Assembly (NCBI GenBank): GCA_964188305.1
Contig: OZ076894.1
DNA: 64,000 nt
From: Podarcis bocagei
Lineage: Eukaryota
Reading direction: 5' to 3' (one strand)
Shown here: piece by piece, positions 16,518-55,506 of the stretch
How positions within the stretch are numbered: position 1 is the stretch's first letter
How the letters are laid out: every line of letters begins with the position of its first letter
Program-made: the position numbers and the translations under genes
The notes under the pieces: model-generated
Databases searched by the model: none
Told to the model about the DNA's origin: nothing
What the model saw: only the letters and a program-made list of their open reading frames with translations

Positions 16518-17047
16518 CGTCAGGGCTGGTTCAGATGCAGGTCAGCACTCAAGATGCTGAGATGAGCAGAAAAGTTAGCTCTTTATTCCAGGAAGCAGCA
16601 TACAAGGCAGCAATGCCTCTGAATATGACTGGTCCCTATGAAACAGTTGCCAGGGCTGATGATCCGCACCTCCTACGTCCCCCTAAGTCTCCTCCTCCTC
16701 AGCCAGATGTTTCCCAAGCAGCCTTAAGCTATATTAGGGAGTGGCCACCTGTGCTCTTTGTTCTGCTACTCGTAAAGCTCTCTGTGACCTTGGAGAAAAG
16801 AGGGAAGGGGAGCTTCCTATAGTAGGAATGACAAGATCCATGGGTGCTTCAAGATCCATGCTCTATCTCTTCTTGCTTGCTAACACTTCTTGCCTCTTCA
16901 GCCTCCAACCACTCCTCCTCCTCTGTCCTGTCCTCAATGTCCCACCACCATTCCCCGGGCTCTGAACCTTCCTCCTGTGGGTCTTCTCTAGGAGGTTCCC
17001 TGGCTAGAGCCTGCCAACATTCCTCATCATCCAGCCAATCCCTGACA
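16518..17047 (-). mobile_element. Solo LTR (Gypsy-like) with a decayed internal reading frame
   Basis: Minus-strand termini TGTCAGGG...CCCTGACG, TSD GCCAG/CCCAG (4 of 5 match), AATAAA near the 3' end. Confidence 0.75.
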
Positions 17048-19149
17048 CCCAGAGGGAGAACTCAACATAGGGTTTCTAATTTTTGTTGCAGGCTGGCATC
17101 TTCAAAAACTTATAGTCACACCCAAGGCCTCAAAACTGTATCACGTTAAGTTGAAAATCTCGAAAAGCACACTGAACGGATCTTTCCAATTAGCCCATCA
17201 TCATCAACTTGATTGCCTGAGTCTATAGTCACACATCAGTTCGCATGGTTCATTTTGTCTCTTATTAAGACAGACAATTATCTAATAATGGGAGAAAACA
17301 AATTGAAGGTGTGAATTCACCCTTAAAGCACAGTCCTTTACATGATCAAAAAACACATTCTGATCGTAATTAGCTGGTATACAACTTTCGTATTTCTAGT
17401 AATGGCACATAATATCTACAAAGGAGGTTAGGATGTCCTTTCAAGTAGGACATGTCCATGAGACTAATCTTCAAATACACAAGATGTTAAGTGTCTTCCT
17501 TGTTTCAGTAGTTCCAAGTCAAGTTTAACCTTAATCTGCCCCAATGAAAAGCATTTCCAAAGTTCACCCAAACCACACTGCCTTTGTAACCATTAAAGAC
17601 ATCAGATCAAAGCTCTTCTCCACCCCCCCACATCTGAAAAAAATAAGAAAGGATTATTCAAACTTGAAAGAGCATGGCTTATCAGGATGAGAAAATACTT
17701 GCCAGCAGTGAGCCCAATATCATCTGACAGGAAGACTTTGTTGCCTTAAAACAAACTGAAAATAGAGATTTGTAGATTGCTGAGCCTTGGAAGTCACTAG
17801 AGAGTGTAGTTCAGTTGCTTTTCATTTGGCCACAGTCAAGTTCTGCGTGGGAGGCAAAGAGATGTTCAAGCAGCCTCTTGAGAAACCTTCATCAGTGACA
17901 ACCTCTGTGCCACTTTATTGTTTAAAGCTGCATTCAATAAACACTATGCGGTCGTGCTTAGGTTTCATATTCATGGCCCAAATAGAATTTGCCAGTTGAC
18001 CTAGGATTGCAGAGTAGGAGGACACATTGGCCTTGTTCATCAGTCAGAGGACTACAGGTCACTGTGATGTTGCACTTCCCCCATGCCTCCTAGGAAGATC
18101 ATCACAGCCTGGACCCAGCCAACAGCCAGAGAAGGAGCAGATGCAGGAAGCTACTTTTCCATCTCTCTGCCAGAAAGAAAAAGCTGCCCTAGCTGCTAAT
18201 TGCCCTCGCATTGCAGAAGCACACCTGGTCATATCTATTAGCCAGAAAGCTAAGCCCATTGTGGGGTGTGTATGTGTGTAGGAAGTGGTTTCCTTGTTTT
18301 GTTTTTATATGATCCACAATAGCTATGTTCCATTAAGTATAATTTATTTAATTCACACAGAAATGAAAAATGTATAGGTAGTAATGAAGGCTTAACATGG
18401 AAAATGGCTAAATCTGTATTGCTGAAGAGTTGCTAACATTGGGGTTTTTCCCATGTTGTTTCTAAATAACTCTAAGTTCTTGCTGAGTTAATGATTAACT
18501 AATTGATTATCGTTTTTCCGGCAGCTAAATGTGAGTGCTGTAACCTTAGATCATGTGATAAAGGTATTAGGTTGCAAAGCTCCATTTTGAAGAGCATTGC
18601 CTTTGAGTCAATGTTTCCCAAACTCCATGGAGTAAGGATGTAAATGAAGCTGTCTTGAAGGGAGAGTAAACAGCCTAAGATGGCAAACAGGGCTAGAATT
18701 CAGGCTGTGGAGAGGGAGAGAGAAATCTTTGCTTATAGGTCTGTTTGGGTTATTTCATATTTTCCAAGATGCTGAGCCTGTGCTGGACAGCACAAGACAT
18801 TGTATAGGATATTTTTGGATGTATCATTGATGCTTATGTTTTGTTTTTAAAGAGTTTTGCCAGTAAAAGTTTGACTAATATTTTTACAGGCCTGGACAAT
18901 GATTTATTTCCAAAATGAGTCAGTTCTTATGCTTCCAGTCTCTTCAAATTGTGCAGTATTAATATCTGCAATATGTTCTATCTTCTGAATGGCGGTTGCC
19001 AGAAACTGCAGTTGGAGACCATGGACTGTTCCAGCAGACTCTTCTTATGTGATTATGCTCATCTGGGGGGTCATTCAATTAAAAGCCAGGATATACATCT
19101 TTAAAATAAGAAATAGGATACTCTATATGCAAATTAATCACTGAATGTT

Positions 19150-19370
19150 ATATAGCGAACTTGGCATGTGAGGAGTGTAAACCAGGAGTCTCCTGTTCAA
19201 ATGTTGACCTGTCACAAGCTGAACTAGTTTTCTGTCCCCCAAATCTGAGCCTCAAGCACTATCTGCCTAAGGAGATAATACTGAATAACCTAACAGCATC
19301 ATTACAATAATTACCGACAATGTATGCACTGTCCTTTAAATGGACAAAAACTGCTGTATAAATGTTAAGT
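19150..19370 (+). mobile_element. Ancient MIR-like CORE SINE remnant
   Basis: Decayed B-box GTTCAAAT, core-like TCTGAGCCTC...GGAGATAATACT, tail TGCTGTATAAATGTTAAGT. Confidence 0.4.
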
Positions 19371-20209
19371 GGAAATATCAGGACTAGATGAGGTTGAGTG
19401 ATAAAGAGGCCAATCAGGTGCTAGTGGCATGTCCCATAGTTGTGAATTGCCACCCACTTTCTCAGCCTGAGTACCAAATTGCAGCAAGGCTATAATCCAT
19501 TGCCGGGGTTGTCAGAGGTTGGGGACTTCGGTAAGGGCACTTCAGAGAGTTATTAGCACTTTTCTTCTATGCCTCCAGTATTCACCTCTTGTACAGTATC
19601 TCCAATTAGTCTGATGAACTGCAGCTTGCTATCATTTTAAAGCAATGAAGCTCTGATTTCATCAAGGAGGCAATGCCGCGAAGCCCTTGGCTTCAGTAAA
19701 GTAAGCCCAAGTGCCTCAAAAGAGAAGAAGATAAAAAGGCCATGTCCACAGCCAGCCAGAGAGATGGAGCCTGCCTTAAAACTGTTAACACATTTCAGAT
19801 ATTCTAGCTTTGGATTCCTGGTTTTATAATTTTGCAGCACTATAAGTCACCCGTTTCAAGGCAGAAAGGGAACATAGTGACTTCTGGAACATCTAAATGG
19901 CTCATTCCTTTGAAACAATCACTCCTAGGCACAGTCTCCTGCTCACAAAGCCCATTTGGCTCCCTGCTGTAATCCTTAGGGTGAGGATACAAGCTGGGAG
20001 AAAACTTGAATGTGAGTGTAGGGAAACTCCAGTCGAATGCAATTGAACACTGGTGAAGGCTCATCACTGAACCTACCTAGAGTACGTAAAGGCAACAAAG
20101 AGGGCATTCTTTGCTGCCTCCATGGCATCCTCATAATGTCACCTAGAATGGGGCTTTTTACAGGCTGGCCGGAAGGCAGTGACAGAACCAACAACAACTT
20201 GCCTTGACT

Positions 20210-20420
20210 TGTTTGCAAACCATTTAGAGGATAAAATTGCTTGCATCTGCCAGGACCTTGACTCCACTGTTAGAGCTGATTAATATTAAGAGGTGTCCAG
20301 AGCACTGTCTAGTCCTGTTGTGTTGGACATGTTTCAGTTAGTAAGGCTCAAGGATGTGGACAAGGTGCTTAGATCTGTCAGTGTGACCACTTGTGCTCTG
20401 GACCCTTGTCCCTCTTGTGA
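20210..20420 (+). mobile_element. Internal L2 ORF2 fragment
   Basis: PVVLDMFQLVRLKDVDKVLRSVSVTTCALDPCPS aligns by eye with PVLDHFDRILPTDVDRFLQVGRPTTCLLDPCPS of the 47170 ORF. Confidence 0.8.
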
Positions 20421-21504
20421 GATTGAAAAATTTAAGGCAGCCTTTGGGTCACCTCATAACAGTGAATATTTCCTTCTGTTTTGAGGAGGCCACAATTTCC
20501 TGTGTATTTCTTTTTGTAACATTCACACATTACTGCAGAAATGTGATGGAACAGACTCAAAATTGAAAAGTTATTCCACAAGCTAAAATTAGACTGATCC
20601 ACCCACCCCTACTTCTTCAAGTCTGACATTATAGTCCAATATACAAATAGTCTTATATTACCACCAGAAGAAAATAGGTTTGTACAGTGTATACAGTTTA
20701 CATTAAGTCACACGGGGTTTCTGGGATGACAGTGGCCTTCTAAAATTCAGTGCCACAAATGTCTTGTTACATTGACTTAATGACAGAATCTATTCTATTG
20801 ATTGTCTTTAAACTTCCTTTGGTGGCTCAGCAAATTTTGCCTCCAGCTGCAATAAAATGTAAATCTGGCTTTTAGTTTCCAGACCTCTCACCGTCCTTTA
20901 AAGAACTGCACACACTTTCTTAAGATTCTGGTTGACTGCACAGTTAAAAAGGCTGCTGAGTATCTGAAATAACTAGCTAATGGCCATCAATACTGCTGAG
21001 TTGTTCTGAGACTTTTCCATAAACCTCCACTTTTCACTTTACATTTCCACAGTTCAGTAAGCCTTATGAATTGAGCCAATATCTTTTTGCAGACTTTCTG
21101 CAAAACCTTGCTCACAAAAGATCCCACTGCTGTGACAGGTTGAGAACCACAGAGCTAGGATCTCACGCTGCTCTGGCTTAGCCATTTTGATGTGTCTCAA
21201 TGTTATCTGAAACATCTGCTCTTGGGTTCTGAGCTGAAGTTAGAGGTTCTTAGACTTGGATGCCTTTTTGCGAAGACTACAGGAACAAACCAGAAAAAGT
21301 TAGGTGTGTTTCGATCAATGGGACATTAGCATCCTGTTAAGTTCTTAAATCACATTGATTTTAGTGAAGCTTAATTACACTTTAGTTTCTCTGAATTGTG
21401 CTCAAACAGCAGCAACTGCAGAAAATTAGGCTCAAGTATTTGTGCCTGTGATGGCTTAGGTAAGTCAGTGTTCTTGTTCTATTGTAACTTGGGAAGGCAA
21501 TGTA

Positions 21505-21647
21505 AATGCCCTCCCATCAGATGTCAAGGCAGCCTTGTTTAGGGAAGTTTTTAATGTTTGATGTTTTGCTGTGGTTTTATAACCCGGTGTGGCTGCAGCA
21601 ACCCAGTCAGATGGGAGGCATATTTAAATAAAGTTGTTGTTGTTGTT
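21505..21647 (+). mobile_element. L2 3' tail fragment
   Basis: AATGCCCTCCCATCAGATGTCAAGG...GTTTAGGGAAGTTTTTAAT, matching the 63015-63110 segment. Confidence 0.8.
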
Positions 21648-22370
21648 CATTCTGCATGCTTGCAGTCCTGAAATCTCTCGTCCTGGCTCAGCCACAGATA
21701 CACTGGCCTGAGATCGAGCAAACCAGCTGGCGAAAAGGGTTGTGTAAATCAAAATTTTTGTTTCCCTCTATCAGGCGCTGGCTTCTCACCTATTGGTAGC
21801 CTAGTTCCAAAACAGAGTTTGGAATAGAGGCAGGTTACTCTACCATAATTTATCCCACTGTGAATTATGTTGGCTTCCTATAGTTTGGATTGCTCTGCTC
21901 ATGTTATTGGGGTGATTCTGGACCAAAATTAGGTTCCTCGACAGATTCCAGGACCTTGATGAAAGGGAAAGAATCCCAGCCTCAGGGAAATGAAGAAAAT
22001 AACAGCAATCTTCTGCAGCTGAAGACAAACCCATTAGCTGAATTAATGCATTGTGATGATGTAACCCTCACCTAATGATAAATTATGGTGAACTTTTATG
22101 TGGCTTGCCAGACTTTGGATGTGTGTGACTGAAAGGAACCTCTTCACTTTTTGCTGCTACTATTTGACTGTCTAGTTGTTTCATTTCTATTATGTACCTC
22201 TGCATAAGAAAACATGTTGTATAAGAAAATGTGTTGTTGTGATTGATGTTCATCTACAATAATGAATGCACAAGTTAGTAAAATAGGATTTCTTATGCAG
22301 AAAGATCAGACAATGAAAGTCAGGCAGTAGGCATTATTTTAGTGAATGGCATGATGAAACTGACTGTTGC

Positions 22371-22371
<1 letters not shown>

Positions 22372-22419
<48 letters not shown>

Positions 22420-22420
22420 T
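22372..22420. repeat. (TTA)n microsatellite
   Basis: Direct reading. Confidence 0.95.
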
Positions 22421-23829
22421 GTACTGCATACTTTTAGTACATTATTACAGTTCTTTTTTTTAACCACTATGACCCCTTGCCTCGTTTCATTTTATGAAGC
22501 TATATCATTTATAATACCTACAAACCTACAAAAGTGTAAGGTGTATATGGGCAGATGGAGGCAGCTTGGCTATTTCTGTCATCATTTTCTAATGATACCC
22601 AACAAACCATCTTTGAAAAATGGCTAAATTCTTTGCTACAGCATCTTCCTTGTCGCAGGCAGTTCCATAGCTCAGCTTTCTTCAAGCTGAGTACAGACTT
22701 TTGCTCTGGAGGTCCTGTGACATATTCCCTATTTTAAGCAGAATGTGCTGATCCAGAGATTTTAAATAGGGAAGCCTTTTTCTTTCATATCTTCCTTCCC
22801 CTCCTCTACATGGCTCTTAAATGCATTCTCCCATTTCCTGAAATTTCTTCTGCTGTTATCCTTTCACATTTAATTTGTACCATATTCCACCACCACCCAG
22901 ACAGCCACTGTCTTTCTTCCCTCCTCCCTTGTCCTCTTGCATTCACTTCCTCCTTAAAACAACTTTGCTCTCTTACCCCCTTCCTTTCTCTAAGTTTATT
23001 AAAAACAACAGTAAACATTTTATCTCGCTTTTTAATTTCCTTTAACATCTACTCTGGCTTTTCCCCTTAGAGGAGGGAGATCTTCTTTCCTTTCCCTCTC
23101 CCCCTCTGAACTTCTGGGTCACTTTTACCCAGAATGCAATGAGTTTCTGGGGTTAGTCAAAAAGGCTATGGCAGTGCGAGAAGGCAGTACAGGAGACACT
23201 GGGCAGGCTGTGGCACTGAGGCCCAGCTAAAAGTCGCCCACTGTTTGAGAAACACAGACCCAAACAAGACAAACAGCCAACAAATTGCTTATATTTTCCC
23301 CACTTGTGTATAGAATATTGCTATTTGTGGAATTTCTGAAAGTATTGAATACTTTCTCCCCATTGTGCCAGAAGGACTTATTTTCGAAGCGTCTTTTTTT
23401 CCTTTGAATATTCATGGTCCCACATGGCACACATCTTTTACATTTTAAGACCTAATTGTATCAAAACTGCCTACACCTTTATCCTCATTACCCCACCGCT
23501 TTCTGGTTACCAAGGCATTTCTCTCTGGAGAATTGCTATTCATAGCTACAGTAGGGATTTCATTTACAATGCCTACTATGTCCTAATCTCCATGACAAGA
23601 ATGCAGCTCCAACGCAAATTTTTTTTTTTTGAGGAAACAGAGCTGAATCAATTAAACTTGGCAAACCTGTCATGTACAGATTTATTAGGAAATGATATTG
23701 ACGGGTCCCAGACATACAAGAACAGCCTTGCTTTTCTCAGACCAAAGGTTCATCTAGTTCCCATTGGCCAACCAGGTAATAATTGGAAACCCATGGCAGT
23801 AGCTCTCTTTCCTTTGTGAATCCCAGCTA

Positions 23830-23871
23830 CATACCCTCCAACGTTTCTCCAATGAAAATAGGAATGACCTA

Positions 23872-23915
<44 letters not shown>

Positions 23916-24181
23916 ACTATGCCCATCTGACTGGGCTGCTCCAGCCACTCTGGGAAGCTTCCAACATATATAAAAACATAATAAAACATTTTTAAAAAAC
24001 TTCCCAATAGTGCCTGCCTTCGAAAGGTTGTATAGCTACATATCTCCTTGGCACAAGGGTAATATAACATGTGGGGTTATATGTGGAGTTATATCTCTGA
24101 TGAAAATAGGGATGTCCAAAGGAAAAGCATGACATTCCAGGATCAAATCAGAAACCAGGATGGCTGGGACTGTCCCTGGAA
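23830..24181. mobile_element. Composite MITE containing an inverted L2 3' tail
   Basis: CATACCCTCCAAC head, (ATT)n plus reverse L2 tail, second TGAAAATAGGGATGTCC head, then body GGATCAAATCAGAAAC...GTCCCTGGAA. Confidence 0.7.
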
Positions 24182-24404
24182 TGTTGTCTCTGAACCTGGA
24201 AGTAGTATGCAGCCAGCATACTTTTGTCTAATCCATTTGTAAAACCAGCCAAAATGGTGGCTGCCACTGCTTCATGTAGTTGTGCAGTGTGAATACTTCC
24301 TTGTGCCTCAGTTAATGTGACTCTTTCCTCCTCTAGCACTTTGTGACAAGGTGGTGGGGAACCTGTAGCCCTTTGCATGTTGTTGGACATGTTGCATGTT
24401 GTTG

Positions 24405-25094
24405 AGAGCAGTTCATGTGAAAAGGATCTAGGAGTCTTGGTTGACCACAAACTTGACATGAGCCAACAGTGTGACGCGGCAGCTAAAAAAGCCAATGCAA
24501 TTCTGGGCTGCATCAATAGGAGTATAGCATCTAGATCAAGGGAAGTAATAGTGCCACTGTATTCTGCTCTGGTCAGACCTCACCTGGAGTACTGTGTCCA
24601 GTTCTGGGCACCACAGTTCAAGAAGGACACTGACAAACTGGAACGTGTCCAGAGGAGGGCAACCAAAATGGTCAAAGGCCTGGAAACGATGCCTTATGAG
24701 GAACGGCTAAGGGAGCTGGGCATGTTTAGCCTGGAGAAGAGGAGGTTAAGGGGTGATATGATAGCCATGTTCAAATATATAAAAGGATGTCATATAGAGG
24801 AGGGAGAAAGGTTGTTTTCTGCTGCTCCAGAGAAGTGGACACGGAGCAATGGAGCCAAACTACAAGAAAGAAGATTCCACCTAAACATTAGGAAGAACTT
24901 CCTGACAGTAAGAGCTGTTCGACAGTGGAATTTGCTGCCAAGGAGTGTGGTGGAGTCTCCTACTTTGGAGGTCTTTAAGCAGAGGCTTGACAACCATATG
25001 TCAGGAGTGCTCTGATGGTGTTTCCTGCTTGGCAGGGGGTTGGACTCGATGGCCCTTGTGGTCTATTCCAATTCTATGATTCTATGATTCTATA
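24405..25094 (+). mobile_element. Young CR1 LINE, 5'-truncated, ORF2 C-terminus open (stop at 25015)
   Basis: [47 protein letters not shown]; (ATTCTATG)n tail. Confidence 0.96.
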
Positions 25095-25229
25095 GACTCC
25101 AAGCTGCCTTAGACCCAGCCACCATGAGCAATAGTCAAGGATGATGGGTGTTCATTGTAGTTCAGCAACATCTGGGTAACCACCCAGATGTGATGCAAGC
25201 AGCTAAGCCCTAACAATTCAGGAAAGTGA

Positions 25230-25906
25230 AGGACCGAACTTTCTTTATGTATGCGACAACAGCAGCAAGAATACTCATCGCAAAGTATTGGAAGACTCAA
25301 GATTTGCCCACTCTGGAAGAATGCCAGATGCAACTGATAGACTACATGGAATTGGCAGAAATGACTGGCAGAATCCGAGACCTGGGAGAAGAGACAGTGG
25401 AAGAGGACTGGAAAAAATTTAAGGACTATTTGCAAAAGCATTGTAAACTGTATGAATGTTAAAATGATGCAGGATATAAAAACAACATGGCATTAGTAAC
25501 CTAGTGGAAAGGAGTATGAAAATAGCTGAACTATAAGAACAAGGATGAAATTTGAATAATATTATGTCAAGTTTAAATATTTTGAATATTTGATAACAAA
25601 AGGTAAAAGTTGGAGACATAATTGTTGAAATGTACAATTTAAAACAAATTTTGAGAGAAGGTGAAGAATTGCGGAACATGATTTTGTAACTAGGAACACA
25701 GAAAAGGGAGACGTGAGGAAGTCATGAAAGAGGGCTATGGAAATAATACTTAAGAAAATGAACTATTTTCTTTTTTGTGCTTTTTAAAGTATTTTTTACT
25801 TGTATTTTTGTATGCTTTCTATGCTTTTTTGTCTTTTTTTGTTTTAACTCTGGTGTATTGTTTGAATTGCTTAAAACCTTTAATAAATATTTTATTTAAA
25901 AAAAAC
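25230..25906 (+). mobile_element. L1-clade LINE 3' end, 5'-truncated
   Basis: 17-bp TSD ACAATTCAGGAAAGTGA (25213-25229 and 25907-25923), AATAAA plus poly(A); peptide nearly identical to the end of the 58347 ORF2. Confidence 0.93.
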
Positions 25907-26204
25907 ACAATTCAGGAAAGTGAGACAACCAGAGCATTCGCATTATAAACATTTGTCAAGCTTTATCTAGCAAGGTTTCCACCCAAAGAATCCTGGAAAT
26001 TGTAGTTTGGTAAGATGCTGAGAGAGATCCACAGTCCCACCTCTGGAACCTCAGTTTCCATGGTTCATTGGGAAGAAGGAATTATTATTAAACCTCTCGA
26101 AACATGCTGCAACATAAACATGTCCACAGTCAGATATGATAGCACCTCTGTCTGTATTTTTGTTTTTCACTGGTCAGTTTTGGTTTTGCATTGATAAGAT
26201 TTAA

Positions 26205-26247
26205 ATCAATCAGTCAATCAGTCAATCAATCAATCAATCAATCAATC
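26205..26247. repeat. (AATC)n microsatellite
   Basis: Direct reading. Confidence 0.9.
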
Positions 26248-27298
26248 ACAGCCAGGAATGGGGAAGTGTTGGTAATAACTCACAAATAATGGGAAGTTTG
26301 ATATTGTATTGCAAGGAGAAACACGAAGCTTCAGTGAGTTCCATTTTTAATCCCTCTATGCATAGCGAAATCCTCTTAAATAGCACAAGCAAGCAGAAAT
26401 GGGGGAAAGTAATTGTTCCAATTATCAAAGGCTCATAGGAATACATTGATCTGGGAGAAACTCACTTTGATTTAATAAACTGCTTAAAAATTAGCATTGA
26501 AAAAGCACGAAGGCAGGCAAAAGCAATAGCTTTGACTTAACTCCAATAACGCAGAGACAAATAATTATATGAACCCAATTCCAGCAAAGAAAAAATATGT
26601 GCATGAATACTAACATAATAACTTCAGCTCACTTTTTAATTTAATGGGTCCATTAATATAATGGGTCTATTCTGGACACAACCTGTGGTCACTAACAACC
26701 AAACTTTTAATATTAAATAAAAGGTTTCTCGAAACTATCAAGTTAATAATCTCTGTTTCCTCACCCCCACAGCTCCAGTTATTTTCAGACAGTATAATTA
26801 TATCCTGAAAAAAGGCATAACTAATTAGCTCTATGCCCATCACTGGTATGACAAAATTCTGAAAGAACAATGATACAGAGATAATACTCATAAGTGGCAT
26901 TTCAGTTACTGCAGTTAGTTCAGAAAGATGTAGGGACAGAACAACAATATAATAATAATAATGATTCTTCTTTGTCCTTTAAGCAATCAATAATAATGCT
27001 TATTTCCCTACTGGGAAAAATAGCTAAAAATACATTTTGAGGAACAAAAAACATTGAAGCACAACTAGAAACATAATGTTAAGATCTCCAGGAAATGAAA
27101 TAAACAAAACTCATGATGAATTTAAGCAAAGATGTTGGACATTTATGGTGGTAGGATTCTGAACTAAGAAGAAATCCCTGGCTGGATGAGGCCAGAGGTC
27201 CACCTTAGCTGAATGGTGCCACCTGAATCAGGTTACTTCACCCTGTCTATATTGATACTGAATGAATCACAAATTTGAGGCAACTTCAATTTATTCAG

Positions 27299-27646
27299 TG
27301 GTGTAAACCACTGAGCCTTGGGCTTGCCGATCAGAAGGTTGGCGGTTTGAATCCACGCAACAGGGTGAGCTCCCATTGTTCGGTCCCTGCTCCTGCCAAC
27401 CTAGCAGTTCGAAAGCACGTCAAAGTGCAAATAGATAAATAGGTACCGCTCCGGCGGGAAGGTAAACAGTGTTTCCATGCGCTGCTCTGGTTTCACCAGA
27501 AGCGGCTTAGCCATGCTAAGCCACATGACGTGGAAAAACTGTCTGTGGACAAACGCCGGCTCCCTTGGACAGTAAAGCGAGATGAGCGCCGCAACCCCAG
27601 AGTCATTCACGACTGGACTTAACTGTCAGGGGCCATTTACCTTTAC
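27299..27646 (+). mobile_element. Sauria SINE, slightly 5'-truncated
   Basis: Sauria body with ACCTTT tail; TSD CTTCAATTTATT(C/A)AG. Confidence 0.93.
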
Positions 27647-28359
27647 CTTCAATTTATTAAGGAAAAGCTCTAGCTCACTGCAAGAAGTAAAGGCCACATT
27701 TAATAGTCTTTCCGGCAATGCAAAATATACCCTATTAACACCTATGCCGAAATTGCTTCAGAAATGAACTAGTGCCAAGAGTATATACAACTTAACTTGT
27801 ATTGGATGCAACCTAAAGAAAAATCTTTAGAAATGAACAAATCGCATCAGTACCTTGGAAGATCCAGATTTAAAGGATGCATTGACATTGATTTCTACTA
27901 AGAACTGTCAACTTCAGTTTATCTGTGGTTCATATTGCTAGGAGGAAAGGCATATTAATTTCAGCCTGAAAAGCAAACTATCTGTTAGCTTTGTAAACAA
28001 ACTACCTTTAAATATCATTTTAAAAATCAAAGACAGATGAGAAGACAGCTGATATGTCAATGTGACCTCTAAAGTCATAAACCACTCCGTTTCATTTAAC
28101 CAATATATTGCGGGCTGAATTTTAGTCAACAGTTGAAGCACAATGTCTGCCAGATGTTTTGAGCCACAGCTCCCATCAGGCCCAGCCATCTTTCTCAACA
28201 GTCAGAGATTATGGGGTTTGTAGTTCCAAATATCTGGAGAGCACCATGTTGGCAATTCCTGCATTAAAGCTTTGTTTGATTAATCTGCCCATTATTACAT
28301 GGGTAGTAAACTGGACACCCCAATGACCCCCTAAGTGAAGGTGCATTATACCTAAGACT

Positions 28360-28790
28360 TGTTGGGTTTCTATTCCTCTCACTGTGCAGATATTATGTAG
28401 GATTGGTTCATCACATGTCTGTGTTATGCATTCCAGCACCAAGTGTTGGAATCACGAGAGTGGATGTTGACTGTACTCTGTTTCCGTTTGTGTTTGCTTT
28501 CACTTCTGACTACTCTCGGAGGAAGATGAGAAAGAGGAGACATGTTTTCTTCTATTCTGCCTTATGCTTAATAAAGTAGCTTTAGTGCTTACAACCTCAG
28601 CCTAGCTCTGACTGCATTTATCTCCGCTGGACTCTGAATATGTGTTTAGTGTCTCCAAGACATAAGTCATTATAAATTGTTGGGAAAGGTGGTTCGGAAC
28701 TCCCTAGAGCTGCACGCTGATGGGAGAGACAGGCTGGAATTGTTCCTGTCGTATGCCTGGGGGTTGTCCTAGCCCCCGGCCGACCCAACA
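28360..28790 (+). mobile_element. Solo LTR (431 bp) with Copia-like termini
   Basis: TGTTGGGT...ACCCAACA perfect 8-bp inverted termini; perfect 5-bp TSD AGACT (28355-28359 and 28791-28795); AATAAA at ~28569. Confidence 0.88.
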
Positions 28791-29240
28791 AGACTGGCTG
28801 AGTTATTTTGACACCTGAAGCAGATAATCCTACAAACATCTCCCCATGGGGGAGCTGCCTCACTTTGCCTAAGAGGAGGGCCAGTTCTGTTGCAGCAGGC
28901 AATATTCATGGCTGGATAGCCATTTTTAGTCAGAATGGATTGAGTAAAATGAAATCACCATCATCATCACTTAGTAGGCTTAGTCTATCGTAGTTTTTCA
29001 AACCATGCTTGGAAATTCCACCCAAGCCTTGCCTGAAATTTGGATTTGAGATGGTATCAGTAAAAGAAAAAAGAAAGTTATGGGTTCTGCCATCTAAATT
29101 CCCTTCTTCGGAACTATTCTGGGAGAGAGAGGGGGAAATTTCCTCCACCCTTTCTGCTGCACCAATTCATGTACACAAAAACTGGCAATATGGATGGGAA
29201 TTTTTGCAAGGTTTATATCAAAGCTTTGCAAATTCTAGTG

Positions 29241-29600
29241 CAGGAGTCGGCAAGGCTTACTGGCCATGGGCTGGATCACTCCCACAGAGATCGTCTGTTG
29301 GTTGGGCCCGTGCAGCGCAACGCTGGAAACTGCGTCTGCACATTCCTGCAGCACCGGCCAGAAATCGCTTCTGCGTATGCCAAGATGCCGAAAATTGTGC
29401 CTGCGTAGAAGCGATGTTCGGCGTCTGGGCATGCGCAGAAGTGATTTCCAGTGCTGCTCGGCGAGTCCCCACGCCATGCCGATTTAGCACAGTATGCGGG
29501 AGACTCGCCAAGTGGGCGGCTCGGTTCGGGGCAGCTAGTGGGCCAGTAAAACGGTCTTCGTGGGCCGCATCTGGCCCATGGACCACATGTTGCCGACCCA
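29241..29600. mobile_element. hAT (Charlie-like) MITE, CpG-rich
   Basis: Perfect 8-bp TSD TTCTAGTG (29233-29240 and 29601-29608), resembling NTCTAGAN; TIRs CAGGAGTCGGCAA / TTGCCGACCCA. Confidence 0.9.
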
Positions 29601-30484
29601 TTCTAGTGCAATACCTAACAGGCAAATTGATATAGGCTATACCATGAAGCAGTTTGAGAAGCCATTCATGACTGGCCCAAATAAGCATTCACCCATTTCA
29701 TACCTGAACTCCACGATTTAGACGGTAGAAACGATTACACAAACTGTAGCCACGATTGCATAACAAAACATAACAGATGAGGAAATGAGAAACAAAGGGA
29801 GAGGAATTGGAAAAAAGTATAAATTGCACAGGAAATTCAAATGAACAAAATGGCAACAAAATTTCAAACAGAAACATCACAGATAGAGTGGAATTAGCTA
29901 TATAGAAAAATGTCTTATTAGTCAGCTCCAGGAGGATTAAGTGCAATTTTTGAAAAAGGCCGTAGATACCAGTTCTTTCCATTTATTCTTTTCTCCATTG
30001 TTAATATTTTGTACCATGTGGAAACAAAGGTGTTAGATCAGGCCTTCAAAATCTGTGAGCTACCAACCTGCCTGTTTTAATGAATTGAACGTTTCAATTG
30101 CTCTTACTAATAATTTCATCATTTGGTGGTGTGTGCTTTTTGTGTAAACTGCATTGAGGGTTTTTTATGATCAAGCAGTATATAAAATGTATGAAATGAA
30201 TAAAATAAATAAACCTGAGCATAGCCCACCAGCTATGAATCGTATCCTGCCATGTGGCTTCACAATTTCCCTGTTGTGTCATATCTGGCAGACAGAGAGA
30301 AATAAGGATAGTTGAATCTGCTCCAACAATTTACCAGGAGCAACCCCACTGTCTGTCTCCTTTGCCATGTCAACCCGTTGCACACGGATGGTGCCAGGGG
30401 AGACAAGCACCACCACCACCATCCTGCGCAAACAAGGCACAAGGTGGATAAGACACTTGTATAATATATAACTATAGGGTGGAG

Positions 30485-30623
30485 CAAGTGTGAGGAACCT
30501 TTGGCACTCCAGCTGATGCTGGACTACAATTCCCATCAGCCCCAGTAAGCATGGCCAATGGCCATGGTTGATGGGAGCTTGTAGTTCACCAACATCTGGA
30601 GGACCAAATATTCTCCACATCTG
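30485..30623. mobile_element. Short hairpin-type hAT-like MITE
   Basis: Arms GGACTACAATTCCCATCA / TGATGGGAGCTTGTAGTTC; partial TSD GGGTGGAG/GGGTAGGG. Confidence 0.7.
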
Positions 30624-31702
30624 GGGTAGGGCACTCAGACGGTGATTTATAATGTTAGGCTAGGAATTCTTACAGAAATAAGTTTCTGAAATGTTGGATG
30701 CTTATGAAGCCCCTGATGGGCCCAACCATGTGTTGTTATAGACAGCTTTTCGTTGATGGGCCACAATTTGTGCAGGCCTGATTAGATCAGACAGAGTAAA
30801 TTTTTAATCCCCCGTTCTCACACAAGCTGTAGAATCATGTGTAGGATTTTATCTTAGGTTGATCTCAAATAACAAAAAAATGGACCACCCTTTTTAATTC
30901 ACAGTGTGCTTTTATTTCTTTATTTATTTATTTTTCATCTGAGATCATTTAATTCAAATAGTGCTGAATCTTACCATATTATTTGAAGTTTAGAACAGAA
31001 GTCAAATAATACCAAAACACATAATTTCTAGTTAATATACTGCAAAGCTTTGATATATGAGAATCTGACAGGAAATTTCTCTGTTTACCTTTCCGCATTA
31101 CGAATGACCACCAATTAGTTCTTTGTGTTGGGGAATCACACCTGGGTTATGTCTTTCATGCTTTGTGATCGACACAAAGGTATATATTTGTTATATATCT
31201 GAATAAGCATTAAAGCAATTGATGAAATTATTTTCCAACTTTTTAAAAGATAAACATGTTGCTTGCATCACAGCTTCACCGTGGAGGCACCATGATGTGG
31301 TAGCATAAACAAATTATTTGTGGCAACTTTGGTTTACATTTCATATGTACCAGTTCTTAACACTGTTCTGCAGAATGCTTAAAATTCCAAACATTCTGTC
31401 AATAAGCCTCTTACCGCTACAAACCTACATTCCCTGGGTGGGCGTCCCAGGGAGTATTGGGTATATTGGATCTCCATATCCAACACTGGAGAGGGTGATC
31501 TGATGTTGGATCACACCTCCTCCAAGCCATGGAAACCTCAGATGCTCTGTTCTAACGGGAGGCAAGAGAGAGGAAGGGATGAAAATAAGAAATATGGGGG
31601 GGGGGTTCATTCTCGCTCAGGATGGCATATTACCAAAGTCCGCCCTTGGTCCAACTGATGTCAGGGTCCAACACTATGCCATGAAGGGATCATCTTGGGG
31701 GC

Positions 31703-32139
31703 TGTCACGGGACAGACAGGGAATGCCCTTGGGGCAAGGGAAGGGGGAGTATCAGAGCAAGAAGAATCAGAAGGGAAATACAGGGAAATGATGGAAGGTA
31801 CTGGGAAGGGTGAGGCAGAGAGCAGTGAAGTGGCGTCAGGGCTCTTTGATGCTGAAAAGCCCTGTCACCAACCAGGAAGTTCAGGAACAGAAGGGGAAGC
31901 GGTGCCTTCAGCACAGGCAAGGAGAGAGTTAAAGCGCAGGGATCAAAGATGTCTCCCAAGATTCCCACGCCTGCTGTGTTGGAGAAGAAACCAAAAGAAG
32001 CCACTCCCCGAATCTGACTCCTCAGGTTCAGATGCATGATTTGGAACTGTAGCTGTTCGTACATATGTTAATAAAGAACTGTAAATATCTCTGAGTGAGC
32101 AGAGGGTGTTTATTGCAAAGAGCACACATCACCTTGACA
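31703..32139 (+). mobile_element. Solo LTR (437 bp, Gypsy-like) with an open internal frame to 32039
   Basis: TGTCA...TGACA termini; perfect 5-bp TSD GGGGC (31698-31702 and 32140-32144); AATAAA at ~32070. Confidence 0.88.
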
Positions 32140-32309
32140 GGGGCAGATCAAGGGTGTGTTCCGAAACCACTTTTTCCCAATAATATGTAACAATTTACAC
32201 TTTTGTCATCTACTAACTATTAAATTATTCACTCATCATTATGAGCAATACATTTATGAGTTCTAAAGTAAATAGAATGGCATTATATGTCTTTTTTAAA
32301 AGAAACATA

Positions 32310-33656
32310 CCATATTTTTCCATGTATAAGACAAGGTTTTTTGCTATTAAAAAAAACAGTAAAAAATTGGGAGTTGTCTTCTACACGGAACATGGGCACC
32401 CAGGGGATTTTTAAAAATATTTAAGCATATGTCCAGGATTTTGGTTTGGGCGGGCTCAGGCAGTCCCTCCTGCTGCCGTCCCCCCCTTCTCCTCCTCCTC
32501 CAGGCTGTATGCTGGTGACTGGCTCGCCTCCTGAAGCCCCCGCTGGCTCAACCACCGGATCGAGAGCAACTGCTGCCACCGCTGCCACTGCTGCCACCGC
32601 TGTCTCAGCTACCTCTCCTTGCCCGGCTTTCCTTTTTTGCCTCTTCCCCTCTCAAACTCCCACCCTGCCCCCAGCATGCTCACCACCTTCCTCAGCTCAG
32701 TTTTGTGCTGGGCCGGGGGTAATCCAAGAACCGCGGTCCAGGTCTGGTCCAGAATCCATAGGGCAGTCCAACAGGGTCAAGGCAAGACACGAAGCAGGAA
32801 ACCAGGCAAGGACAAGTACAGGATCTCAGGCAGGATCTAGCATACAGCAATGTTGCTCCCGCAACCTGCGGCAGGGTCCAACAGCCTTTTATCATTGTCA
32901 GGGTAATGGCCAGTTCTGATCCCCCAGTAACTCACCTCCCTGTCTCATCCGAAGGTGAGCACTCCTCCTGCGACTACTCAAGTCTCTCCTTCTCTCAGAC
33001 CTTAGTCTCTGCAGCTCGGGAGACGTCGGTGGGTTACTAGACCCAGGGGCCGCCTCAGCCTCTCCTGACCCAACTGGTAGTGGAGCAGCTGTAAGCGATG
33101 GCCCAGCTGAAGGCAACGAGGTAATCCCCACATCTGGAGCCAGGGCAGGCTCAGGCCCCTGACTCGGCCCAACTGGTGTTTGTTGCAGGGGAACCTGTGC
33201 AGACTGGGACTCTTCAGGATCAGGCCCCAGACTTGGTTCAGATGGTGCCTGAGGCAAAGGATCTGGTGCAGACTGAGACTCCTCTGGTTCTGAGCCCGAG
33301 CCCAAGTCCCAAGCCATCACAAGTTTGCTCAATGGCATGGCCCAGCACAGAGTGGGCGCTGCCTCCCCCTGAATCCTGCCTGGGATCCTCCTTCCCCTCG
33401 CTTCCCCGTAGCAGCAGCTGCCACTGAGGGGGAGCATGTGGTGCCCCAACCGCTGCCTTTGCTTCTGCACCACAGTGCACTGCATGCAGCTCATGCTGGA
33501 AACTTTGAAGGCGATTGCCCCCCAAAAGATAAACTTGCCACCGCAGATCATCCAGATTTTCACTTCTGTTTTAGGGTTTTGTTTTCTTAATTTTGGGTTA
33601 AAAAAATATAGGGGTAATCTTATACATGGGGGCGTCTTATACATGGAAAAATACGG
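32310..33656. mobile_element. Tc1/mariner (Tc2/pogo-like) non-autonomous element hosting a solo LTR
   Basis: 23-bp TIRs CCATATTTTTCCATGTATAAGAC / GTCTTATACATGGAAAAATACGG; TA TSD. Confidence 0.9.
32704..33321 (-). mobile_element. Solo LTR (618 bp, Gypsy-like) with an open internal frame 33320->32898
   Basis: Minus-strand termini TGTGATGG...CCAGCACA; perfect 5-bp TSD AGTTT (32699-32703 and 33322-33326); TATA-like GATAAAAG just after the stop. Confidence 0.88.
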
Positions 33657-41478: not shown

Positions 41479-42142
41479 TAGGCCAGCTTTACAATGGCGA
41501 GATAATCTCCCCACTACACCATGGCGATCATGCAGCCTTCCATTACATGTCAGTGTGCACGTGTACAGAAGTCGACTGGCAATATTAACCTAGCAAGAAC
41601 TTAGCATGTATACAATACTGTATAATATTTTAAATGATTCATACAGTTACATGCTACCAAAATCTCCAAGTGGTGAGAGACTCCAGAGGTTCCAGCACTT
41701 ACCAAGTTTCCTTGGAATGGAAGGTAAGTGAAGACTGTGGAGCCTTTAGGGTATTTAATTTTATTTACACACACATAGAGTATATAACCTGAGAATATGA
41801 TGGAGGGCGTCACAGCATTAACACCCCCAAAAGATCTTGCTTTCCCATCAGTCTCAGCTTTGGACCCAGTACAGAGCAAGCATGTCTCTGTGTCTCCATC
41901 TTCCAGCCTGTTTCTAGCTCAGCTCTCACACACTACTCTGGCTATTGTTCTCCGACCTACATAGTAGCTGGGTGCAATGGGTGGAGGAAAGGCGCATCCA
42001 TTAGCCTGATGGAGCGCACCATCACTTAGTCTTGTAACCTAGCTCATTCTTTTGGGATGCCATGAGGGTACTAAAGTAACCAGCTAAGGTCACTATCTTA
42101 CAAAGAAACCTGTCAGGCCAGTTTAGCAACTTTCTCTAACCT

Positions 42143-42767
42143 TAGAATCATAGAATCATAGAATCATAGAGTTGGAAGAGACCACAAGGGCCATCGAGTC
42201 TAACCTCCTGCCAAGCAGGAAACACCATCAGAGCACTCCTGACATATGGTTGTCAAGCCTCTGCTTAAAGACCTCCAAAGAAGGAGACTCCACCACACTC
42301 CTTGGCAGCAAATTCCACTGTCGAACAGCTCTTACTGTCAGGAAGTTCTTCCTACTGTTTAGGTGGAATCTTCTTTCTTGTAGTTTGGATCCATTGCTCC
42401 GTGTCCGCTTCTCTGGAGCAGCAGAAAACAACCTTTCTCCCTCCTCTATGTGACATCCTTTTATATATTTGAACATGGCTATCATATCACCCCTTAACCT
42501 CCTCTTCTCCAGGCTAAACATGCCCAGCTCCCTTAGCCGTTCCTCATAAGGCATCGTTTCCAGGCCTTTGACCATTTTGGTTGCCCTCCTCTGGACACGT
42601 TCCAGTTTGTCAGTGTCCTTCTTGAATTGTGGTGCCCAGAACTGGACACAGTACTCCAGGTGAGGTCTGACCAGAGCAGAATACAGTGGCACTATTACTT
42701 CCCTTGATCTAGATGCTATACTCCTATTGATGCAGCCCAGAATTGCATTGGCTTTTTTAGCTGCCGC
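42143..42767 (-). mobile_element. Young CR1 LINE 3' end
   Basis: Nearly identical to 24405-25094; (CATAGAAT)n on the plus strand; ORF2 end open. Confidence 0.96.
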
Positions 42768-46477: not shown

Positions 46478-47123
46478 GGCGGCAAAAGGTATACCAGTCC
46501 AACTTGTATTATTTATTAATTCAGTTTCTTTCCCACTTGGAAGGAACAAAGTTGCAAAACAGTTAGCAAGTAATGCAATCACCTTAACTGTAACCCCCAA
46601 ACTAATGTCCATTTCTTCCTCCTGATGTCTTCCCTACCAAACATCCTGAAGATTTCTGCAAAAATGTTTACAGACAAATGGTTTCACAATTAAAAACTCC
46701 TGAGCAGAAAGCATAAAGGTGGAAAGTTAGTTAATTAGTTATTGGCCAAGTTCATATCATTTGAACCATGCTAGGGAAACTTTTATGAACTTTTTATTTA
46801 AGCCAAAGTGAGATTTAATATGCACAAATAATTCCTGGCAATATATTTAAAATGGTAAGGCCCATTCCTCTGGGAAGTTCTGCAACACAACTTTCACTGA
46901 AATGAATGATTTTCCTTTCATTGCAGCAGAGAGGACTTCCCAGAAGATTGTGTCTTAAAATTGCAACTAACTTCCATTGACACATAATTTTAGACTTAAA
47001 AAAAAAAAAAATGCTGACAAGGAATAAACTCTGTTCATTTCATTCTGAAAATCTTCTTTTCATCTCTCCTGCCCCCCTTCCTTGACTCTTTCCTTTGTAA
47101 TGTCTGCATAAAAGCAAGACATT

Positions 47124-49634
47124 ACAAGCAGGCCACACGCTGGATCTGATCTTTGGGGCTGGCATAGATGTGATCATGCTCCCCGCTGTGAAAGTGCCAT
47201 GGTCTGATCACTACGCTTTAAAAGCCAAGATTGACTTCCCGCTCCTCCCCGGCTCGGGTGCCGAGCCTATTTGGGCTCGTCCGCGAAAACTGATGGATCC
47301 TGATAGATTCCGACAAGCCTTGCGGAACCCTGCTCCTCCTGGCGACTCATTAGATGACCTTGTTGAGGACTGGAATAACCGGCTCTTGGCAGCCATTGAT
47401 GAAATCGCGCCTAAGCGCCCTCTGCGACCCCGCCGAAACCGGGCCCCTTGGTTTACTGAGGAGCTCCGGAAAATGAAGCGGGATCTCAGACGGCTAGAGC
47501 GAGTATGGCGACGGACTCATGACGGAGCCTCAAGAACATCTTATAGGACGCTTATGAAAGCCTATGAGATGGCTATGAAAGCTGCTAAGAAATCTTACTT
47601 TGCAGCTTCTATTGCATCCGCTAGCTCTCGCCCGGCACAACTTTTTAGAATAATTAGGTCAATAACGTCCTTAGGAGGACAACCAAATTTAAGCACAAAT
47701 TCGACCCACAGCTGTGAGGCATTCGCGAGCTTTTTTGCGGAGAAAGTCCTGTTGCTCCGCCGTGACCTCCCTGCTAATTTAGATACAGTGACTGAACTGG
47801 AGGCCCCTCGACTGACTTCAGGTCCAGTGTTGGACCATTTCGATCGGATACTCCCTACTGATGTGGATAGATTCCTCCAAGTTGGTAGGCCCACCACCTG
47901 CCTCCTTGATCCGTGCCCATCTTGGCTGATTAGGGAGTGTCCAGATGTTGCGCGGACCCCCCTGGTTGAAATTATCAATTTGTCCCTTGACACGGGGACA
48001 TTCCCAGGGGAACTGAAGGAAGCAGTGGTGCGTCCACTCTTAAAGAAAGCTTCATTAGATCCCTTAGACCTATCCAATTACCGCCCAGTTTCAAATCTTC
48101 CATACCTGGGTAAGGTAATTGAGAGAGCGGTTGCTGAACAGCTTGGTAGGTTTCTGGAGGAAACATCGGCATTAGATCCATTTCAGTCCGGTTTCCGTCC
48201 TGGTTTTGGGACGGAGACGGCTCTGGTTGCCCTAACAGATGATATCCGTAGACAACTGGATCGAGGCGGGTCAGGACTGCTGATCCTTTTAGATTTGTCA
48301 GCAGCCTTTGACATGGTCGATCATGATCTTCTGGACCATCGCCTTGCAGACGTGGGGATACAGGGCATAGCCCGTAACTGGTTGTGCTCTTTTATCTCTG
48401 GTCGGGGACAGAGGGTGGCACTAGGGAGGGAAATGTCGTCACGCCACTCCTTGGTGTGTGGAGTGCCGCAGGGCGCAATTCTCTCCCCAATGCTTTTTAA
48501 CATCTTTATGCGCCCCCTTGCCCAGATTATCCGGAGCTTTGGGCTGGGCTGTCATCAATATGCTGATGACACTCAGCTCTATCTACTGATGGATGGCCAC
48601 ACCAACTCAGCCCCTTACACACTGACCAGATGCTTGGAAGCTGTGGCTGGATGGTTTCGTGGGAGCCGATTGAAACTAAATCCTTCGAAGACAGAGGTCC
48701 TATGGCTAGGTCGGGATAGCATGGGGATGAGGGACCAACTCCCTTCTCTTGCGGGGGCCCAATTAGTGCCATTGCCTTCCGTTAAGAGTTTGGGTGTAAT
48801 CCTTGACGCCTCCCTTTCCATGGAGGCGCAAGTCACAGCAACAGCCAAGGCGACATTTTTCCACCTTCGCCGCATCAAGCAGTTGGTCCCTTACCTTTCC
48901 CGCCCCGACCTGGCCACAGTGATCCATGCGACAGTCATCTCCAGGCTTGACTACTGTAACTCGCTCTACGCGGGGCTGCCCTTGAAGCTGTCCCAGAAAC
49001 TCCAGCGGGTACAGAATGCTGCAGCGAGGCTCCTCACAGCGTCTCTGCCATGGGAGCATATTCATCCAGTGCTTTTCAAGCTGCACTGGCTCCCGGTGGA
49101 GTACAGGGTCAGATTTAAGGTGCTGCTTTTGACCTTTAAAGCCCTTCACGGCCTAGGACCCTCGTACCTACGGGACCGCCTCGCCTGGTATGCCCCACGG
49201 AGAGCCTCAAGGTCCATAAATAACAACACCCTAGTGGTCCCAGGCCCTAAGGAAGTTAGATTGGCTTCAACCAGAGCCAGGGCCTTTTCAGCACTGGCCC
49301 CAACTTGGTGGAACGCTCTGTCTCATGAGACCAGGGCCCTGCAGGATCTGATCTCTTTCCGCAGGGCCTGTAAGACAGAGTTGTTCCACCTGGCCTTTGG
49401 ATTGGAGCCAATTTGATTCCCTCCGCCCCCTTTTTCTTTTTTCTTTTCCTTCTCCTGCAATGAGGCTCCATTTTAATATTTTAATGTTCCATTATTTTAA
49501 TGTTGTATTTTATTTTTGTTTTTAAGTTGTAATCACTCATCTTGTTTTTATTATTGCTTGTAAGCCGCTCTGAGCCCGGCCTTGGCTGGGGAGGGCGGGG
49601 TATAAATAAAAAATTATTATTATTATTATTATTA
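47124..49634 (+). mobile_element. L2 LINE, 5'-truncated within the endonuclease domain, young
   Basis: Continuous ORF2, T-rich 3' UTR, stem-loop-like end GCCGCTCTGAGCCC...GAGGGCGGGGTATAAAT, (TTA)n tail; CpGs retained. Confidence 0.95.
47125..49416 (+). CDS. L2 ORF2 (end of the APE endonuclease plus a complete reverse transcriptase); no native start
   Basis: Frame opens at QAGHTLDLIF..WSDH (APE C-terminus); RT motifs NYRPVSNLP, FQSGFR, LLDLSAAFD, GVPQGAILSP, YADDTQLY; L2-type SRLDYCNSLY and LHWLPV. Confidence 0.92.
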   Translation, partial: QAGHTLDLIFGAGIDVIMLPAVKVPWSDHYALKAKIDFPLLPGSGAEPIWARPRKLMDPDRFRQALRNPAPPGDSLDDLVEDWNNRLLAAIDEIAPKRPLRPRRNRAPWFTEELRKMKRDLRRLERVWRRTHDGASRTSYRTLMKAYEMAMKAAKKSYFAASIASASSRPAQLFRIIRSITSLGGQPNLSTNSTHSCEAFASFFAEKVLLLRRDLPANLDTVTELEAPRLTSGPVLDHFDRILPTDVDRFLQVGRPTTCLLDPCPSWLIRECPDVARTPLVEIINLSLDTGTFPGELKEAVVRPLLKKASLDPLDLSNYRPVSNLPYLGKVIERAVAEQLGRFLEETSALDPFQSGFRPGFGTETALVALTDDIRRQLDRGGSGLLILLDLSAAFDMVDHDLLDHRLADVGIQGIARNWLCSFISGRGQRVALGREMSSRHSLVCGVPQGAILSPMLFNIFMRPLAQIIRSFGLGCHQYADDTQLYLLMDGHTNSAPYTLTRCLEAVAGWFRGSRLKLNPSKTEVLWLGRDSMGMRDQLPSLAGAQLVPLPSVKSLGVILDASLSMEAQVTATAKATFFHLRRIKQLVPYLSRPDLATVIHATVISRLDYCNSLYAGLPLKLSQKLQRVQNAAARLLTASLPWEHIHPVLFKLHWLPVEYRVRFKVLLLTFKALHGLGPSYLRDRLAWYAPRRASRSINNNTLVVPGPKEVRLASTRARAFSALAPTWWNALSHETRALQDLISFRRACKTELFHLAFGLEPI

Positions 49635-55070: not shown

Positions 55071-55506
55071 GTGCAAAGCAGAAGCTCTGCTACTGAGCTA
55101 CAGTCCTGGAGTGATGCTGTACGTGGCAAAGAGTCTGTATAAGGCAGGATAAGGCAACTTTCTATGGTCCATAATTTAGAAGCTTACATAGCCAAATGTA
55201 AGGTGAGCCCTCCCCCCCCCCCCATGCTGTGATCAGGAATTGCTGCAGACAATTTTAAAGGGACTCATTCTGGAGTAAAACTTCAGCGAACCTAATTGCA
55301 GGCATGATTCCACTTTGACTAGTCCTGGTTATTATCCTAAGCATAAGATGCTTTGGCTTATTATAAAGAAGGAAGCTCATAGATTACCATTTACATATCA
55401 GAACTAAGGCAGCAGAAATGTCAAGCAGCAGATGCCTTGACTTTCTTCCGAAATGTATATCCTATAGACTCTTCCAAAGCAACAGAAAAATCAGCCTCTT
55501 CTCAAT

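Follow-up and report, generated by a model that had tools for sequence, protein, structure and literature searches.

Lizard chromoviruses extend gag-pol into the 3' long terminal repeat and encode a candidate nucleosome anchor at its end

Introduction

How do solo long terminal repeats (LTRs) without evident DNA similarity come to share an open reading frame? The question is raised by a stretch of 64,000 nucleotides from the lizard Podarcis bocagei (GenBank assembly GCA_964188305.1, contig OZ076894.1), referred to in its entirety as the window, in which three such LTRs, here called A, B and C, each open a frame at their second base. A preliminary description of this DNA proposed that in the parent elements either pol/integrase or an accessory frame reads through the polypurine tract (PPT) into the 3' LTR, adding a chromatin-tethering tail with an RRSxRL-like motif, and that every solo LTR spreads a promoter together with a ready-made peptide module. 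We identify A, B and C as solo LTRs left behind by lizard Ty3/gypsy chromoviruses of the Tf1/sushi type. It is probable, in our assessment, that gag-pol of these elements continues past the chromodomain and PPT for 110-140 codons into the 3' LTR, and that an HMGN-like RRSxRL motif, a likely tether to the nucleosome acidic patch, closes the tail in the C and A lineages.

Results

The three LTRs and their tails occupy the following positions, where base-2 frame denotes the reading frame that starts at the second base of an LTR and TSD a target-site duplication.

32704..33321, minus strand: solo LTR C; 618 bp, TG..CA, TSD AGTTT exact, from a Tf1/sushi-type chromovirus
32901..33320, minus strand: C tail, a U3-encoded integrase tail; 140 codons in the base-2 frame, an acidic Pro/Ser linker then a basic block; ATG is codon 2
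32952..33023, minus strand: C basic block SPELQRLRSERRRDLSSRRRSAHL; the HMGN-like motif occupies its final six codons (32952-32969), where His stands in the anchor-Arg column
32853..32893, minus strand: C TATA-like GATAAAA (32887-32893) and, 31 nt downstream, a 10-mer (32853-32862); inferred transcription start, downstream of the tail stop codon
16518..17047, minus strand: solo LTR A, of an older family; 530 bp, TG..CG, TSD matching at 4/5 positions
16852..17046, minus strand: first 65 codons of the A tail; base-2 frame, acidic and Trp-rich, broken afterwards by a frameshift
16716..16796, minus strand: A tail basic block SPRSQRALRVAEQRAQVATP*YSLRLL; shifted to the base-3 frame, with a stop inside
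31703..32139, plus strand: solo LTR B; 437 bp, TG..CA, TSD GGGGC exact
31704..32036, plus strand: B tail; 111 codons in the base-2 frame, no RRSxRL
31905-31988, plus strand: B basic block of the RRxLKRR..LxCWRR type, unlike the C/A block

The coordinates and lengths first given for the LTRs held, as did their lack of obvious similarity: BLASTN among the three families returned no match except separate neighbouring or nested insertions. Other elements of the preliminary description had to be revised. The 5-bp TSDs are exact in B and C only, and the common base-2 register is open in all three LTRs but does not contain the motif of A. An RRSxRL-like motif in every LTR (the three peptides quoted for it stand in the order C, B, A) did not survive inspection, as B has none, that of A is frameshifted and interrupted, and that of C reads RRSAHL, the anchor arginine being replaced. 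The open lengths of 65 (A), 111 (B) and 140 (C) codons were equalled in 76, 48 and 11 of 2000 dinucleotide shuffles, respectively. No Pfam family matched the three window tails, and a protein atlas search gave no usable match.

Each LTR belongs to a dispersed family, with at least 55 (A), 43 (B) and 40 (C) matches in searches that scored the best 40 candidates, and a scripted check found an exact 5-bp TSD at 21 of 30 C loci. Across these families, open stretches of 80 codons or more occur in the base-2 frame of 7/29 A, 5/13 B and 25/32 old C copies and of all 21 LTRs of young C relatives, a length that each other sense frame reached in 0-2 copies per set. The conserved columns of B read RRxLKRR..QR and LxCWRR. 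The LTR families of loci L111, L251 and L230 are nested in each other at several loci.

Parents of C were sought with a pattern combining PPT and LTR start, which returned two loci. One of these (L091) contains integrase, chromodomain, PPT and LTR peptide, the last three in one frame, and 52 of the 150 listed matches to the end of its chromodomain lie in frames of at least 1,500 codons. Among the C-clade loci fetched, the chromodomain frame is open into the LTR in 29 of 30 and reaches R(R)SARL in 26, with the proviso that the query included PPT residues and was thus biased toward in-frame matches. Four of six longer stretches have paired LTRs, 98.6-100% identical, around a single gag-pol frame; in these intact C relatives the frame comprises 1,558-1,654 codons and, in the base-2 register, ends 307-352 nt (~115 codons) into the 3' LTR. 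Of the other two stretches, one carries a pair of overlapping frames that end in a similar way, and the old C copy showed neither arrangement. The window C tail is 43% identical to residues 1441-1547 of the intact gag-pol at L245, and when used alone as a query among longer proteins, none of 2162 candidates passed. Taken together, these elements bear out for the C clade the proposal that pol/integrase runs in frame across the PPT into the 3' LTR.

Pfam recognises gag, protease (PR), reverse transcriptase (RT), RNase H (RH), integrase (IN), SH3 and Chromo domains in the C-relative frame, in PR-RT-RH-IN order. It contains no Pfam env domain, nor is there room for one, since the frame ends inside the 3' LTR. 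Retroviral parents were rejected in favour of chromoviruses, and a separate accessory frame was rejected as well; the tail is the end of the single gag-pol frame, and the integrase half of the earlier alternative is the one that stands. The chromodomain (PF00385, E 8e-15 in the C relative) is also present upstream of A-type and B-sister LTRs. In the C clade it has Y, W and Y at the places expected from HP1, and B-sister families are without the first and third of these aromatic cage residues. Such a cage corresponds to the type I class in the chromodomain passages of PMC6317226. All four intact C-relative elements examined have a 10-nt complementarity of their primer-binding site (PBS) to a site in the LTR, a self-priming arrangement given in the same source as a signature of the Tf1/sushi group. 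In the L245 LTR this site lies at base 392, following a TATA-like box at 361 and the tail stop at 349, and the 10-mer in window C is complementary to the self-priming PBS of the relatives L245, L246 and L249. The nearest named protein to the C-relative frame is from Podarcis muralis (97%). On an integrase tree of 65 rows, a quick reconstruction whose rows hold no named Sushi or Amn reference element, squamate elements fall together (SH-aLRT 97, midpoint root), with relatives from frogs and fish alongside. The chromodomain matches of one family crowd on a single contig (C19 of G000) in many near-identical copies, which may reflect segmental amplification or targeting.

Junctions upstream of A and B were harder to recover. 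None of 50 A loci from protein searches had integrase nearby, and no internal region was recognised at any of the 8 loci returned by a first A PPT pattern. A looser pattern gave 26 loci, two with integrase (L251 and L273). Over its first 150 nt the LTR of L251 shares 73% identity with A, and L273 carries a sister LTR; at both loci the LTR peptide continues the frame of the last chromodomain segment and the PPT. No long parent frame appeared among the 150 protein matches listed for each family, the longest being 251 codons for B and 241 for A. For B, a single internally deleted insertion, present as three duplicates, retains a remnant of integrase, whose frame matches that of the LTR peptide in two of them. 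Two B-related families keep the register at 8/8 and 11/16 loci and end in other basic blocks, one of which shares LCWR with B. Read-through into the LTR is thus observed in the C family, likely in A, and probable in B, where it is least secure of the three. Loci L035-L037 and L114 are very short deletion derivatives that comprise an LTR start, an integrase scrap or nothing, the PPT and a complete 3' LTR. At the front of the A tail, acidic-tryptophan motifs (DWxxEEEWW, EPGxWWWD) recur, and divergent subfamilies retain them.

Selection on the tail was assessed in 29 A copies (of 36 extracted, 80 loci), 13 B copies (of 27, 50 loci), 32 old C copies (of 32) and 21 young C relatives (of 23, 29 loci), after dropping partial copies and duplicates and with real copies compared pairwise. 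The K0/K4 ratio was preferred over NG86, in which transition bias puts many controls at 0.6-0.8; its intervals are bootstraps over codons and ignore the relatedness of copies. When 11 young tails were compared with those old C copies (18 of 32) whose frame is open through the motif, K0/K4 was 0.36 (0.18-0.61) against controls of 2.39 and 1.63, in a protein-guided alignment that favours low K0. An unbiased DNA alignment of young copies gave 0.43 (0.19-0.95). Between young subfamilies the ratio was 0.14 (0-0.50) for the basic block, 0.17 for the first 20 codons and 0.96 for the middle, a pattern consistent with constraint at both ends and a flexible linker between them. The A tail gave 0.72 (0.55-0.95) with five controls at 0.96-1.24, and B gave an NG86 ratio of 0.54 versus controls of 0.90 and 0.68. 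In between-lineage tests the other frames gave ratios of at least 1: constraint acts on the base-2 frame specifically, at its non-synonymous sites. Indels shared among tails are multiples of three in B (2/2) and young C (1/1), though in only 4 of 9 cases in A, and 9 of 12 singleton indels in old C tails are frameshifts. Compared with one another, old C copies give no clear sign of constraint. Purifying selection on the tail is seen in the C clade and more weakly in A, with no clear signal in B.

We next consider the motif itself. HMGN (RRSARLSA), Dsup (RRSSRLTS) and Dot5 (RRSARIAT) are described in passages of two reports as binding the acidic patch via arginines, and serine phosphorylation is proposed there to block HMGN binding (PMC12487698, PMC13347269). 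In young C relatives all 21 LTRs encode RRSARL followed by KA, identical to the HMGN sequence at 7 of 8 positions, and the Anolis sequence RRSARIAA matches Dot5 equally well (7/8). The strict motif arose in 1-4 of 2000 shuffles. The anchor column of old C copies holds R in 14, H in 11, C in 5 and other residues in 2 (n=32). In A, columns 3-6 retain S in 19, L in 23, R in 23 and L in 28 of 29 copies; columns 1-2 hold chiefly Arg, stop, Gln, His or Trp, with Arg in the minority, as CpG decay would be expected to leave them, and one copy (L241) has the motif intact.

RRSxR[L/I] occurs near the C-terminus in 5 of 102 parsed homologues (of 120), namely in Podarcis, in two Anolis clusters of 94 and 366 members, and in two frog proteins. 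The Anolis form, RRS[A/L]RI, is present in both representatives and in 4 of 5 listed chromodomain-bearing members, the frog form, RRSPRL, in both representatives and 3 of 5 members, and one of 135 further parsed records, retrieved with a query that contained the motif, ends in RRSARLAAAH. The motif is consequently shared at the ends of otherwise dissimilar tails in the C clade, Anolis, frog and one further record. The Anolis and frog tails probably lie in an LTR as well, judging from PPT-like peptides. The squamate group on the integrase tree holds both motif-bearing and motif-less families and the frog family falls among frog elements, a placement that suggests separate gains of the motif. 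Database proteins, P0002 for example, include the tail, which carries no annotation there. In fish P0003, P0064, P0079, P0104 and others, an RPRGRP stretch, which we take to be AT-hook-like, precedes the PPT-like peptide and is followed by a short ending, R-x-[P/L]-S-P-[E/D/V]-[Y/F].

A fourth solo LTR lies in the window, outside the system described here.

28360..28790, no strand or class assigned: fourth solo LTR; 431 bp, TSD AGACT, no motif

It had been put forward as an internal control and, having no class assigned, is at best a putative one. The motif is indeed absent, but its own base-2 frame is open for 72 codons (28361-28576, plus strand), which may be chance, and encodes a basic patch, RRKMRKRRH; Pfam found no match in this frame. 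The window also contains a 771-codon frame with an RT domain (47101-49413, plus strand) and three 98%-identical copies of another young repeat (24402-25093, 42142-42767 and 55506-56205).

Discussion

Our data show that gag-pol of C-clade chromoviruses reads through into the 3' LTR, and the question is what the resulting tail does. The proposal of a chromatin-tethering tail fits the C and A motifs, which at the level of sequence resemble the acidic-patch motif of HMGN, Dsup and Dot5, and does not extend to all three LTRs. Several observations weigh against it. The motif is rare among parsed homologues, at the 5 of 102 and 1 of 135 given above, and the LTR placement of the Anolis and frog tails was made from peptides, without their DNA. 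The acidic-then-basic layout occurs without the motif in B and in tails from two other lizard families, a viper, a rattlesnake and an amphisbaenian, and the fact that several families keep this layout without the motif means that the charge layout may be the selected feature. Read-through in A is supported by two decayed junctions that have copy-specific frameshifts further upstream, and three independent B-sister chromodomain junctions vary in the length of their G-run, none being in register. To these are added the biases of the C-clade query and the protein-guided alignment, the ratio of 0.68 (0.47-1.02) for old C alone, a ratio of 0.72 in one control frame, and the lack of a K0/K4 signal across the 13 B copies (1.04, 0.71-1.58).

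The strongest competing explanation, which we nonetheless consider unlikely, accepts the read-through and takes the basic block for a nuclear-import signal or a general DNA/RNA-binding patch, with RRSxRL incidental or just a kinase site. Integrase C-termini commonly carry basic nuclear localization signals, which counts for this view, as do the 7-12 basic residues in the last 40, behind an acidic front, of every tail profiled (five from squamates and the two open ones of the window), whether or not it has the motif, and the short read-through of fish relatives, which have their Arg-rich stretch before the PPT instead. What speaks for an acidic-patch tether over nuclear import is the fixed pattern R-R-S-x-R-hydrophobic, with A, L or P at x, in lineages that the integrase tree places apart; an import signal needs neither the serine nor the hydrophobic residue, and it is those columns that match HMGN, Dsup and Dot5. 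It is more improbable still that the tail is a by-product without a protein role, whereby no stop precedes a G-rich PPT and a purine-rich U3 is kept for the promoter. The open lengths of single A and B copies go just modestly past their shuffles, the tail middle is neutral between young subfamilies and B has no K0/K4 signal, all of which would suit such a by-product; the base-2-specific constraint on non-synonymous sites and the in-frame indels of B and young C, though not the 4 of 9 in A, stand against it, and for the C clade this explanation is largely refuted.

We consider it most improbable of all that solo LTRs serve as mobile promoter-and-peptide modules supplying host proteins with a chromatin tether. 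Codon 2 of C-type LTRs is an ATG, at which three gene models in databases start (P0124, P0125 and P0127, one joined to a host G-protein-coupled receptor), and RNA reads from a related species pass from flanking DNA into the LTR start. However, the tail frame lies upstream of the inferred transcription start, so solo LTRs are not ready-made peptide modules; the LTR edge of A and B offers no start codon, and the copies in the window are either damaged or motif-less. Singleton indels of old C are mostly frameshifting, and just 14 of its 32 copies keep the anchor Arg. The gene models are predictions, and P0125 and P0127 exit the tail before the motif. The claim that every solo LTR spreads such a module thus falls, while the codon-2 ATG and the three models leave rare exaptation open. 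Raw RNA reads from a related species cover the integrase, PPT and LTR of a young element at a low level and mainly on one strand, and no transcription start site was found in them. Models that fuse elements to host genes, whether chimeras or prediction errors, involve a G-protein-coupled receptor in Podarcis lilfordi (P0127) and PCBD2 and KCNQ5 isoforms in Anolis (P0270, P0271).

If the tail is an acidic-patch tether, it would remain on mature integrase as a disordered extension whose acidic linker gives reach, and its arginine anchor would dock on H2A/H2B. With the chromodomain reading methylated H3, this would amount to two-point capture of a nucleosome, which phosphorylation of the motif serine would switch off, as has been proposed for HMGN. 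B-type lineages would rely on their different basic block. The solo copies in the window are decaying passengers.

Parts of this arrangement have precedents. KSHV LANA and foamy-virus Gag contain short chromatin-binding arginine-anchor peptides, and HIV nef and MMTV sag are frames that overlap U3. These share either the anchor or the U3-overlapping coding with the lizard tail, but are separate genes or Gag, whereas the tail is the end of Pol in a non-enveloped retrotransposon. LANA is among the acidic-patch binders named in passages of PMC13347269. The intact C relatives have no env and no tRNA PBS and hence are not endogenous retroviruses. V-clade Tf1/sushi chromoviruses such as Sushi and Amn-like elements, as portrayed in passages of PMC2774666, PMC4131045 and PMC6317226, have the same gag-PR-RT-RH-IN-SH3-chromodomain order, no env, TG..CA LTRs, a 5-bp TSD and a self-priming PBS. 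The lizard elements differ in their U3-coded integrase tail of 85-140 residues, acidic then basic, which the passages on Sushi and Amn-like elements do not mention; fish relatives have about 10-30 residues after the PPT-like peptide. In plants, gag-pol of CRM group A and of beet Bingo1-4/7 also extends into the 3' LTR, and excerpts of the reports on them describe the LTR-coded part of CRM as a putative chromatin-targeting domain in which a CR motif replaces the chromodomain (PMC3059260, PMC3605345). Lizard elements keep the chromodomain upstream of the PPT and add the tail, and the PBS of the C relatives is self-priming rather than tRNA-Met; the likeness to CRM group A is one of read-through design alone. 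The HMGN, Dsup and Dot5 motifs likewise lie in a low-complexity region, according to the passages cited above, and the lizard motif differs in standing at the C-terminus of a retrotransposon integrase, in a tail otherwise without Pfam match and with binding that is putative. Full-text searches of the literature yielded no account of this tail or of a retrotransposon integrase bearing an HMGN-like motif, and repeat databases or subscription papers may already annotate the read-through. As far as these sources go, plant chromoviruses already provide cases of read-through into the 3' LTR, and a candidate HMGN-like nucleosome anchor on a retrotransposon integrase is apparently new.

More broadly, and tentatively, as we hold it somewhat less likely than the tether itself, vertebrate chromovirus integrases may be two-point nucleosome readers that combine a chromodomain with an LTR-coded, phospho-switchable HMGN-type anchor gained repeatedly, in squamates, a frog family and a further lineage, with U3 as a fast-evolving targeting module and animal counterpart of the plant CR motif. 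A practical caution is that the LTR's ATG can mislead gene predictors into opening false exons. Site choice by vertebrate LTR retrotransposons is largely open, and an integrase anchor, if true, would offer a concrete and testable mechanism for it and extend the HMGN motif to transposons. The U3 of very abundant lizard LTRs would then be protein-coding DNA, which would explain how related LTRs diverge strongly in DNA while keeping their frame.

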